DNA of 64,000 nt, taken from assembly GCA_951406725.2 (NCBI GenBank), contig OX597837.1, positions 40,052,001 through 40,116,000 of the forward strand. The letters run 5' to 3'. The notes under the pieces were generated by a model. It had not been told where the DNA came from. It searched no databases and worked only from the letters and a program-made list of their open reading frames with translations. The stretch comes from Octopus vulgaris. Its lineage: Eukaryota. Of this stretch, positions 16,750 to 62,061 are shown in pieces. Each line of letters opens with the position of its first letter. The first letter of the stretch is position 1. A program made the translations under genes and the position numbers.

Positions 16750-17208
16750 GTGACACTCTTAAAGAAAGTTGATGTGGAAAAAGGAATTTTCCAGGGGGTC
16801 TCATTGTCCCCTTTAATATTTGTCTTATGTTTGATCTCCCCCCACCCCCACAGTTTAGTATTAAGTAGCACAAAAGCAAGGTATCAGTTTAGAAATAGTG
16901 AGGCAAAATTTAAACATTTACTCTACATGGATGATCTGAAGCTGTTTAGTAAGAATGAAAAAGAGATGGATCCCTTTATAGAGACAGTAAAACTTCAGCA
17001 AAGATACGGGCATGGAATTTGGCATAGATAAGTGTGCAAATATTAGTCATGAGAAGGGGACAGGAAGTCAACAGCGAAGGTACACAATTACGTGATAGCC
17101 AGACATTAAAATCATTGAAAGGAGGAGAGAGTTATAAGCATCTAAGAGTATTAGAATCTGACAGAGTACTAACTATAGAAATGAAAACGAAAATTGAGAA
17201 GGAGTATA
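16750..17208 (+). pseudogene. R4/Dong-clade LINE reverse transcriptase fragment
   Basis: KGIFQGVSLSPLIFVLCL..HLLYMDDLKLF, then frameshifted FSKDTGMEFGIDKCA..ESYKHLRVLESD. Confidence 0.88.
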
Positions 17209-17239
17209 AATGAGAACCCAGGTTCGAAATTTCCTCAAG

Positions 17240-17283
17240 ACACCTGAAGAATGCTGGAGGGTATATCAGCCGAAACGTTGTGT
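17240..17283 (+). ncRNA. minimal type I hammerhead ribozyme motif within a 5'-truncated element (17209-17341)
   Basis: ACAC-CUGAAGA-au-gcugg..ucagc-c-GAAA-CG-UU-GUGU; palindromic ACGU replaces helix III. Confidence 0.7.
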
Positions 17284-17377
17284 TAACAACAAAAAAGATG
17301 AGGACAAATATCCGTTGAATGTAAATAATGTAAATAATGTATATTTTAATATTTTTCTTAACATGAAACCAATGGAA

Positions 17378-32224: not shown

Positions 32225-33026
32225 AAGGTGGCGAGCTGGCAGAAACGTTGGCACGCCGGGCGAAATGCGAAGCCGTATTTCGTCTGCCGTTACATTCTGA
32301 GTTCAAATTCTGTCGAGGTCGACTTTGCCTTTCATCCTTTCGGGGTCGATAAATTAAGTACCAGTTACGCACTGGGGTCGATGTAATCGATTTAATCCGT
32401 TTGTCTGTCCTTGTTTGTCCCCTCCGTGTTTAGCCCCTTGTGGATAGTAAAGAAATAGGTATTTCATCTGTCTTTACGTTCTGAGTTGAAATTCCGCCGA
32501 GGTCGACTTCGTCTTTTATCCTTTCGGGGTCGATAAATTAAGTACCAGTTACGGACTGGGGTCGATGTTATCGACTTAATCCGTTTGTCTGTCTTTGTTT
32601 GTCCCCTCTATGTTTAGTCCCTTGTGGGTAGTAAATGAATAGGTATTTTGCTTGCCATTACGTTCTGAGTTCAAATTCTGCCGAGGTCGACTTTGCCTTT
32701 CATCCTTTCAGGATCGATTAAATAAGTACCAGTTACGCACTGGAGTCGATATAATCGACAATCCGTTTGTCTGTCCTTGTTTGTCCCCTCTATGTTTAGC
32801 CCCTTGTGGGTAGTAAAGAAATAGCTATTTCGTCTGTCGTTACGTTCTGAGTTCAAATTCTGCCGAGGTCGACTTTGCCTTTCATCCTTTCGGGGTCGAT
32901 TAAATAAGTACCAGGTACGCACTGGAGTCGATATAATCGACTCAATCCGGTTGTCTGTTCTTGTTTGTCCTCTCTGTTTAGCCCCTTTTGTGTAGTAAAG
33001 AAATAGCTATTTCGTCTGCTGCTACG
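32225..33026 (+). mobile_element. SINE-D chain: one head, 4 beta units of about 183 bp, and a partial unit
   Basis: Units restart at 32458, 32642, 32824 and 33006, each directly after the tail end gtaaagaaata (gtaaatgaata once). Confidence 0.93.
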
Positions 33027-45331: not shown

Positions 45332-46113
45332 AGATGGTTATATAATGTCCAATTTATTATTTGGTTACGACAAGGAAAACAACCCGAAAGTATAATGGTG
45401 GTAGCTTCTAATAGCAACCTACAGCACTACGCCGACTTCCCTCCAAGGAATATTAGGCGGAGAGGATAGACGTATGGATGGAGGGATTTAAGAACTGACT
45501 ATCCTGTGTTCTGGTGGTTTCCTTTTATAAGAAATAATATTTTGATAAAAAAAAAAAATGAAAATATTTTAGTTTCTAAAATTGTCATTTCCTCAGAGAA
45601 GAAAAACAAAATGGAGAATGCAATTGGAACAAAAACCGTCTCCATCTTTGTTTGAATCCTATCTTAATACGCTAATCCCTTCTTTCATAAATATTTCGTT
45701 ACTTTTCCTTTTCACTTAGTTATCTTAAGCGAACGACGTTGACTTGTTGACATTTTCTCAGTTTTACCCTAGGAACACAGACTCTCTCTCACACTTAGTT
45801 TCCCTCTCTCTTTCTCTCTTCTCTTCTTCCTTTCTTTCCTTCCTTCTCTCTTCCTCTTTTTTCTTTCTCTCTCTCGCTCCCTCATTCTCTTTGTTGCTAT
45901 GAAACATTAGCTTGCAAATATTTAATATGAAACGACGACAAATAAATCAATTTTATTGACTTAACAATGAATTTGCAAATACCCCCGAGATATTAAGTAA
46001 AACTCTTGAACTTTTACAATTTTCCCGTCATCAAATTCATAGATATTTCCCTGTTAAGGTTACAAGTACACATACGCACGCATATCTACATATATTATAC
46101 ATAAAGTGCGTAT

Positions 46114-46672
46114 TACAGTTCCATATTTAAGAGATGAGGAATTATGTACATTATTTACATTTGACGGACATTTGACGGGCATATGGCGTAGTGGTTAAGA
46201 GCGCGGACTACTAACCACAAGATTCCGAGTTCGATTCCAGGCAGTGAACTGAATAATAATAATAATAATAACATCGAAAATACCTATTTCTTTACTACCC
46301 ACAAAGGGCTAAACACAGAGAGGACAAACAAGGACAGACAAACAAATTAAGCCGATTATATCGACCCCAGTGCGTAAATGGTACTTATTTAATCGACCCC
46401 GAAAGGATGAAAGGCAAAGTCTACCTCGGCGGAATTTGAACTCATAACGTAAAGACAGACGAAATACTGCTAAGCATTTCGCCCGGCGTGCTAACGTTTC
46501 TGCCAGCTCGCCGCCTTTAACATCACAAATACCTTAGGATTGAGTACTCAGGTTCGAAATTTTCCCAAGACACCTGATGGGGGCTGAAGGGTATATCAAC
46601 CGAAACGTTATGTTAACAACAAACAAGATGAGGACAAATTTCCGTCAAATGTAAATAATGTAAATAATGTAT
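46114..46672 (+). mobile_element. tRNA-headed, hammerhead-bearing element with an inverted 5' copy of its 3' end; SINE-D nested at 46285-46517 (-)
   Basis: TSD ataaagtgcgtat at 46101-46113 and 46673-46685; inverted repeat 46148-46173 / 46636-46661; A-box at 46184, B-box at 46229; hammerhead motif 46570-46613. Confidence 0.8.
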
Positions 46673-47144
46673 ATAAAGTGCGTATATATGATTCTACATA
46701 TGCGTTTGAGAAGGCCTGATTGTTTCATAGCAGCAAGACCATATCCTTTCCTTCCCCTTGGCTTCAGGATATACCGTTGTACGTAATTCTCTATGCATAA
46801 CATGTTTAGCACACTTCAACATTTGATGGGGAAGTTAATGTAATATGAGAACCCCCTTCGTATCTATCTACTTATTCTATCGTTCTCTTTTTGCCGAATT
46901 GCTGACGTAAACATAACAGCATCGGTTCTCAAACGCTACTGAGGAGACAAACACAAACACCAACACTCAGACACATTAATACACACACACACATACAACA
47001 CACGTACACGCATATATATATATAAATAGATATATCTATCTATCTATCTATACATACATACATACATACATACATAGACACTTATATTAGCTGCTTCAGT
47101 CGCTAATAGCTAATATGCACATACGTGTGTGTGTATGTGTGCGC

Positions 47145-61127: not shown

Positions 61128-61188
61128 ATTATACACATATTACCAAGTTAGTCTGTACTTTACACATTTGATCATCAATTTAACCCGT

Positions 61189-62061
61189 GGAGTCGATGTA
61201 ATCGACTTAATCCCTTTGTCTGTCCTTGTTTCCCCCCTCTATGTTTAGCCCCTTGTGGGTAATAAAGAAATAAGAAACATTAGCACGAGTGGTGAAATGC
61301 TTAGCGGTATTTCGTCTGCCGTTACGTTCTGAGTTCAAATTCCGCCGAGGTCGACTTTGCCTTTCATCCTTTCGGGGTCGATTAAATAAGTACCAGTTAC
61401 GCACTGAGGTTGATATAAACGAATTAATCCGTTTGTCTGACCTTGTTTGTCCTCTCTGTGTTTAGCCCCTTGTGGGTAGTAACGAGAAATAGATATTTCG
61501 TCTGCCGCTACGTTCTGAGTTCAAATTCCGCCCAGGTCTACTTTGCCTTTCATCCTTTCGGGGTCGATAAATTAAGTACCAATTACGCACTGAGGTTGAT
61601 ATAAACGACTTAATCTGTTTGACTGTCCCTGTTTGTTCTCTCTGTGTTTAGCCCCTTGTGGGTAGTAAAGAAATAGATATTTCGTCTGCCGCTACGTTCT
61701 GAGTTCAAATGCCGCCCAGGTCTACTTTGCCTTTCATCCTTTCGGGGTCGATAAATTAAGTACCAATTACGCACTGAGGTTGATATAAACGACTTAATCT
61801 GTTTGACTGTCCCTGTTTGTTCTCTCTGTGTTTAGCCCCTTGTGGGTAGTAAAGAAATAGGTATTTCGTCTGCCGCTACGTTCTGAGTTCAAATTCCGCC
61901 CAGGTCTACTTTGCCTTTCATCCTTTCGGGGTCGATAAATTAAGTACCAATTACGCACTGAGGTTGATATAAACGACTTAATCTGTTTGTCTGTCCCTGT
62001 TTGTTCTCCCTGTGTTTAGCCCCTTGTGGGTAGTAAAGAAATAGGTATTTCGTCTGCCGCT
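61189..62061 (+). repeat. SINE-D(beta) chain with 184-bp periodicity
   Basis: Unit starts at 61306, 61492, 61676, 61860 and 62044; the last three full units are near identical. Confidence 0.95.

Follow-up and report, generated by a model that had tools for sequence, protein, structure and literature searches.

A dead solo terminal repeat of a Poseidon-type Penelope-like element in octopus, opening with a tRNA-like head that may drive Pol III transcription

The locus at 46101-46685 of the 64-kb stretch of octopus DNA that we analysed (the window, taken at its full length) combines a tRNA-like head, a hammerhead motif and an inverted end in the style of Penelope-like elements (PLEs), which raises the question of what kind of element it is and what transcribes and moves it. 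The original prediction took it for a hybrid of SINE and retrozyme, driven by Pol III and mobilised by a Penelope-like reverse transcriptase (RT). Our analysis points to a solo copy, now dead, of the terminal repeat (pLTR) of an autonomous PLE of the Poseidon type, in which the pLTR itself starts with the tRNA-like A/B-box head, and this head probably drives Pol III transcription of the whole element of about 3 kb.

Layout of the window copy and its hammerhead

Direct reading of the locus recovers every part that had been listed for it, namely the target-site duplication, the inverted 3′ end with its extension, the A/B-box head, (AAT)n, the nested SINE, the hammerhead motif and the 9-nt repeats. 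The features of this copy, and of a second copy in the window, are as follows.

46101-46113, forward strand: left target-site duplication ATAAAGTGCGTAT, 13 bp, read directly
46114-46173, reverse strand: inverted, 5′-truncated pLTR arm, with the PLE tail extension of about 30 nt at 46114-46141
46175-46251, forward strand: tRNA-like pLTR head, with +1 at G46177, the A box at 46184-46194 (+8) and the B box at 46229-46238 (+53)
46252-46271, forward strand: (AAT)n linker, of a length that varies between copies
About 46278-46517, reverse strand: nested high-copy SINE, an unrelated, later insertion with a short duplication of host-element sequence
46518-46568, forward strand: middle of the pLTR with the start codon of the PLE ORF, where the window copy has TTG (46540) in place of ATG
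46569-46614, forward strand: minimal type I hammerhead of the PLE type, dual-coding with the ORF and inactivated in this copy, with a predicted cut after 46609
46615-46672, forward strand: 3′ part of the pLTR arm (ORF codons and 9-nt repeats), stopping at the short end point
46673-46685, forward strand: right target-site duplication ATAAAGTGCGTAT, 13 bp, read directly
17209-17343, forward strand: second family copy, 5′-truncated and headless, showing the subfamily variant A7 together with its linked G

In the window copy, the inverted arm and the head meet via a common ACGG, the right arm ends without an extension, and the RNA would have started at about -2 relative to the tRNA +1 (46177). The nested SINE is flanked by duplicated AACATC.AAATACC of the host element itself and is missing at the corresponding position in nearly all other family copies. 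It has more than 20 related matches within the window, where tandem arrays of it are also found (e.g., 32225-33026 and 61188-62061), and the accessible part of PMC4824008 gave no help in naming it. Decay is evident in the copy: its core A9 has become a G, both stem I and stem II contain mismatches, TTG has replaced the ATG and a new TTTT lies at 46560, such that the predicted hammerhead motif is present while a live ribozyme is not. The TTTT was considered as a subfamily trait and rejected, as only 7/192 arms have one at this site. A second B-box-like motif, GGTTCGAAAT, lies at 46550-46559 in the coding part of the pLTR and may be due to chance, and the 9-nt tail repeat runs to 1-4 units across copies with the ORF frame kept. 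The second copy has the intact core that had been claimed for it, although the first pair of its stem II is broken. Directly upstream of it, at 16900-17200, an RT-like coding fragment (LLYMDDLKLF, by eye) is probably a LINE remnant.

At the level of the family, the majority hammerhead core is intact (CUGAUGA, the unconstrained position 7 being either U or A). The majority motif carries an extra base after position 9, a G10.1-C11.1 pair and a palindromic stem III, which are the three features described for minimal PLE hammerheads (PMC4209133). The double-hammerhead fold of an intact copy has an energy of -21.3 kcal/mol versus -29.8 kcal/mol for the best dimer fold, so that it is possible, yet not the minimum. 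Selection on the core after insertion was considered and rejected, with changes at 6.0% in the core versus 7.6% elsewhere, so that copies decay almost neutrally. Rfam returned no hammerhead match in two scans, and in a third scan none was found among the best 150 of 332 matches. Hammerhead-like motifs also occur elsewhere in the genome. The main Neptune-type PLE family (L065-L090), many copies of which have open frames of 781 aa, carries downstream of its ORF a variant with a UUGAUAA core, resembling the U3-A8 covariant of PMC4209133, while minimal-hammerhead-like motifs outside the studied family were seen at L068, L102 and L179, and also at L101 and L104, one of them within a recurring repeat.

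The autonomous partner and the insertion footprint

Across the genome searched (G000; 2.8 Gb in 227 contigs), exact 25-mers matched 6,606 times for the hammerhead, 2,052 times for the head start and 456 times for the ORF end that immediately precedes the head, while reversed-control 25-mers had 0 matches genome-wide, so that the family match is not due to chance. Copies differ by about 9% (their median identity being 90.8%), and true copy numbers would therefore be several times above these exact counts. Head and hammerhead are consistently linked, with 14/24 hammerhead-selected arms extending into the head and the other 10/24 cut shorter; inspection of the first 60 loci revealed no other common upstream sequence, and no relatives were found among viral contigs.

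The partner was reached through an RT fragment around one copy, which led to a Poseidon-type family with 1,366 first-look candidates. The lead came from a double-armed short copy lying inside an older copy of its parent PLE, with a 12-bp duplication (L038:970-2610). Two other groups were tried and rejected as partner: 50 loci from a GIY-YIG search, mostly of Neptune type, share no 3′ end with the element, and neither do 50 loci of a second PLE group, which we take to be Naiad-like. In the Poseidon-type family, the head stands directly behind the ORF end in 9/19 RT-selected loci (L162-L180), with inverted arms upstream in 6, and one locus (L180) contains the complete ORF with a head on either side of it. 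The order of the unit is head, (AAT)n, ATG, hammerhead, tail, RT, a putative GIY-YIG-type C-terminus, stop, about 27 nt, and the head again. The ORF begins with an ATG between (AAT)n and the hammerhead, its frame continues through ribozyme and tail, and it stops about 27 nt ahead of the next head; partial tandems of ORF end, head and ORF start occur at L222 (the same as L340) and L326. The tRNA-like head belongs to the autonomous element's own pLTR.

The family belongs, almost certainly, among Poseidon-type PLEs. Its RT matches RVT_1 (E = 2e-7) and is 38% identical to the Anolis protein P0086, taken from its length and start to be PAc, versus 23% to a Neptune-type ORF of the same genome. The N-terminus of the ORF is conserved in the relative P0008 (42% over 48 aa). 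At the C-terminus, a region read in translation as IPC.C...YKGET matches homologues, some with PF01541, and the GIY-YIG label rests on these motifs and homologues; the family is absent from the 50 of 150 GIY-YIG matches that were examined. No copy with an intact ORF was found, the longest open frame among the 150 copies listed being 569 aa. Among the closest outside relatives is the P0007 cluster (55% over the RT), which includes proteins named from the barnacle Amphibalanus amphitrite, while a named mollusc match reaches 36%; horizontal transfer among marine invertebrates is possible on this pattern. A predicted protein named from Octopus sinensis (P0001, 368 aa) is 94% identical to the element ORF over its first 36 residues, and this ORF-like start precedes what appears to be the protein's own signal peptide and cysteine-rich domain, which may reflect exonisation or a gene-prediction artefact. 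The match suggests that the family exists in a related species.

The short copies are pLTRs standing alone, in which about 55 codons from the start of the ORF are retained. Because head, (AAT)n, hammerhead and tail form the terminal repeat of the PLE, with the start of the ORF inside, the apparent SINE is the element's pLTR. Measured against a tRNA-derived SINE, the family has the A/B-box head, but this head is shared with the partner, and the LINE 3′ tail is missing: the 3′ part, which the original prediction had suggested comparing with a PLE pLTR, consists of the first codons of the PLE ORF and is not LINE-derived. The idea of a SINE mobilised by a Penelope-like RT thus holds for the PLE link, in footprint and 3′ part, and fails for a separate SINE front on a borrowed tail, the head being in the partner's pLTR.

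The footprint of insertion was read from 152 loci with 244 arms, 59 of the loci having been chosen by similarity to the window copy. The 3′ ends are bimodal, with 110 of the 244 arms stopping at one point and 99 at another some 30 nt away. Pairs of arms are arranged head to head in 81 cases, tail to tail in 3 and on the same strand in 9, and in 63/81 head-to-head pairs the tail of about 30 nt is found on one arm only. A duplication of at least 8 bp flanks 33/81 pairs, versus 1.4% for shuffled flanks. This footprint agrees with the PLE insertion pattern described in PMC8557442. For PAc of Anolis, a Poseidon element, both strands are reported to be cut and extended, with two internal RT starts and with hammerhead cleavage dispensable (PMC11167929).

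By analogy with this Anolis biochemistry, the protein would nick both target strands and prime reverse transcription internally on the RNA, the two start sites lying some 30 nt from each other (PMC11167929). A start in the first pLTR would yield a short cDNA running off at the 5′ end of the RNA, which gives a 'SINE-like' solo copy, while long copies would result from starts in the second pLTR. A cDNA from each strand would then be joined to the other, head to head, via short homologies, such as ACGG in the window copy. Cleavage by the hammerhead is predicted for dimers only, and the hammerhead does not set the ends of the element. As to origin, a SINE or retropseudogene that came from a tRNA and ended in (AAT)n may have replaced the usual T-rich promoter region of the pLTR.

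Transcription from the head and rival readings

Where copies end at their 5′ side bears on how the RNA begins, with insertion ends standing in for the RNA 5′ end. Among 70 head-start loci taken in genome order, 57 start within 7 nt of the tRNA +1, and the PLE sequence upstream of the head measures at most 7 nt in these 57 and 34-478 nt in the other 13, the lengths being lower bounds where deletions interrupt the match. Among the hammerhead-selected arms, 8/24 begin at the head start, and 0/24 pass it or reach the ORF end. Over some 50 nt at this boundary, the number of exact 25-mer matches drops from 2,052 to 456, and AC, or its CpG-decay form AT, occupies positions -2/-1 in 33 of the 57 boundary copies. 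When 29 copies were selected for the 5′ part of the ORF, a sense head was found in only 5, the rest being truncated; 2 of the 5 follow an ORF end in tandem, and 3 start at the head behind unrelated flank. The ORF-bearing loci L180, L314 and L317 begin at the head after unrelated flank. We read this 5′ boundary as the probable 5′ end of the RNA. A small palindrome (GCCC-AC-GGGC) at the boundary and brief fold-back of the head make its position uncertain to within a few bases, and they offer a rival cause for it.

The head itself aligns to the tRNA genes of the genome, best to tRNA-Arg, without an isotype assignment. Its boxes stand at +8 and +53, in tRNA register, and the strict A/B-box pattern is kept in 41/70 aged copies, while between ORF end and hammerhead an A/B-box match occurs in 0/14 outside Poseidon-like families. 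As a tRNA, the head scores below the Rfam threshold and the default threshold of ARAGORN. Two Rfam scans gave no tRNA match, and in a third no Rfam tRNA was found among the best 150 of 332 matches, almost all of which were microsatellite-driven miRNA. Relaxed ARAGORN called 6/70 heads at threshold 85, but at 80 it gave noise on control loci, and its calls are therefore given no weight. Reads matching the family number in the thousands in three raw RNA runs of a single study. The runs look unstranded and provide no Pol III test: 65-70% of placed reads continue into other sequence, with no pile-up of starts or ends at the head or the cut site, and no unit-length 'goes back' joint was among the RNA joints listed, from a library type unsuited to circular RNA.

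Pol III terminates at runs of four or more T. The majority sense strand, read from the ATG up to the following head (2,527 nt at a coverage of at least 20), has 0 TTTT and 30 AAAA, where five null models over the 2,454 in-frame nt expect means of 2.9-4.2 TTTT (P = 0.012-0.026). Six control ORFs from the same genome, of Neptune and Naiad type, have 8-15 TTTT runs each (6/6 with runs), and among outside Poseidon-like families of at least 1.5 kb the ORF part holds TTTT in 44/45, though these comparisons set one majority sequence against single copies. Over the span that includes ORF and hammerhead, each of 14 outside families has at least one TTTT, and TT has an observed/expected ratio of 0.79 in the family, below all 45 outside families (lowest 0.85). 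The stretch from stop to hammerhead is T-rich in 11/14 outside families, whereas here it consists of about 27 nt plus the head and has no TTTT. Real copies carry 0.44 TTTT/kb, in line with the 0.50 simulated for neutral decay of a TTTT-free master. We count against the T-run argument that the P values are modest, that GGGG is also absent from the majority strand (as it is in most controls), that among the outside ORFs L372 lacks TTTT throughout its 1.9 kb and L376 has a single run, and that one aged copy (L173) has 4 TTTT runs in 1 kb.

Together, the boundary at the head start and the TTTT-free sense strand point to Pol III, and we consider it probable that the head is used by this polymerase. 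More tentatively, and at less than even confidence, the sequence evidence can be read as an autonomous protein-coding PLE that lives wholly on Pol III. Here, the tRNA-derived head would give an uncapped RNA of about 3 kb, purged of T-run terminators, which would be translated into the RT-endonuclease, and internal priming would yield thousands of SINE-like solo repeats, some of them spreading alone. Counted against a Pol III origin of the RNA are the sub-threshold score of the head, the palindrome at the boundary, and the need to translate an uncapped RNA from an ATG upstream of the cut site. The last of these would be solved by a capped RNA if the same PLE were transcribed by Pol II, with the head as a captured passenger or as the Pol II start site, and with the sharp 5′ boundary stemming from that start site or from fold-back at the small palindrome. 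This is rather unlikely in our judgement, yet D. virilis Penelope has an internal TATA-less, LINE-like promoter in its pLTR (PMC2377424), an internal Pol II promoter of this kind would also give a sharp 5′ end, the T-run depletion reaches a P of only 0.01-0.03 with 1/45 outside ORFs TTTT-free too, and exactly 7 upstream bases match in 21/70 loci, which is readable as head fold-back. A Pol II start fits less well with A and B boxes placed at +8 and +53 from the boundary and strictly kept in so many aged copies, or with the replacement of the T-rich stretch between stop and hammerhead by a head and about 27 nt that lack TTTT.

A different division of labour, in which a large share of the short copies comes from Pol III-transcribed solo pLTR masters mobilised in trans, as in a PLE-dependent SINE, is unlikely. 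Short copies are far more numerous than long ones, and a subfamily marked by A7 in the hammerhead and by another change linked to it (linkage p = 1e-8) is commoner among solo than among ORF-linked loci (13/38 versus 3/31 typed loci, p = 0.02, with 57/126 loci untyped). However, A7 is found in copies linked to an ORF as well, and the two changes fit coding (D to E, and synonymous), so that the solo enrichment is a hint only. Internal RT starts in the first pLTR account for short copies without separate masters, and solo copies may lack the binding site, given that PAc RNA must reach ORF position +172, which lies past the sites where the RT starts (PMC11167929). A SINE-like subfamily with partial independence is nevertheless possible. 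Very improbable is a non-LTR retrozyme, with monomers cut by the hammerhead, circularised and copied into tandem arrays, even though most copies have an intact minimal hammerhead and animal retrozymes have been proposed to derive from PLE pLTRs (bioRxiv 10.64898/2026.07.22.740005). The copies are dispersed and paired head to head (81 pairs versus 9 on the same strand), and the mapping of ends contradicts it, as 0/244 arms start and 1/244 ends within 2 nt of the hammerhead cut site; the retrozyme half of the original label is dropped on these counts. The preferred reading is still that of an autonomous PLE whose own pLTR bears the head, probably under Pol III.

Relation to known systems

Autonomous retrotransposons are generally regarded as dependent on Pol II (or, in the case of R2, on read-through by Pol I), and Pol III promoters as marking short non-coding passengers. 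If the family is driven by Pol III, a 3-kb Pol III RNA must be translated, and PLE promoters, the purpose of PLE hammerheads and cap-independent translation become testable in one element; if Pol II drives it, the head is an unusual yet modest capture of a promoter region. Were the wholesale Pol III reading true, a LINE-SINE pair would be united in one element, a route to SINE birth caught in the act. A SINE-like family can arise straight from the terminal repeat of its partner, and annotation pipelines may file such pLTRs as unclassified SINEs. The octopus repeat annotation of PMC13282606 reports Penelope elements and many unclassified SINE families, with no ribozymes in its main text, and curated octopus libraries such as this one may already hold the family. 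In the literature searched (subscription journals, Repbase, Dfam and supplements lying outside its coverage), we found no tRNA-headed or Pol III-driven autonomous PLE.

With other Penelope/Poseidon PLEs, as described for PAc (PMC11167929), D. virilis Penelope (PMC2377424) and in PMC8557442, the family shares a single ORF of RT and a C-terminal region, in this family a putative endonuclease, a partial-tandem pLTR, an inverted 5′ copy, a one-sided tail of 30-40 nt, and a minimal hammerhead that overlaps the ORF start and whose cut does not mark the ends. It differs from them in that its pLTR opens with an A/B-box head and (AAT)n and not with a T-rich 3′ UTR/promoter, and in the lack of TTTT on the sense strand; the TATA-less, LINE-like internal promoter of D. 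virilis Penelope comes with an intron (PMC2377424). Animal non-LTR retrozymes are likewise short hammerhead elements tied to PLE pLTRs (PMC7229834; bioRxiv 10.64898/2026.07.22.740005), but they are non-coding, form tandem arrays, have canonical hammerheads and circular RNAs, and are described in the accessible text with no mention of a tRNA head, the words 'tRNA' and 'promoter' having 0 occurrences in the main text of the latter preprint.

The closest likeness in a short repeat is to the SINE-like hammerhead repeats of schistosomes, Sm-alpha and Sj-alpha. In these, a Pol III-type promoter is followed by a hammerhead, and the accessible text presents them as non-coding, often tandem and ribozyme-released, naming no autonomous PLE that shares the head (PMC6765202). 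The pairing that had been thought undescribed is thus known, from schistosomes, as far as Pol III and hammerhead in a SINE-like repeat are concerned, and the novelty lies in the tRNA-headed autonomous PLE. A parallel for the capture itself is found in the TRIMp3 elements (Cassandra, Helenus and Ajax), where a Pol III promoter of small-RNA origin was taken into a terminal repeat, by a proposed SINE insertion (PMC10886601). The TRIMp3 elements are non-autonomous LTR elements, whose autonomous partners must, according to the author, use Pol II given the weak processivity of Pol III, whereas in the family studied here the head sits on the autonomous element (PMC10886601).
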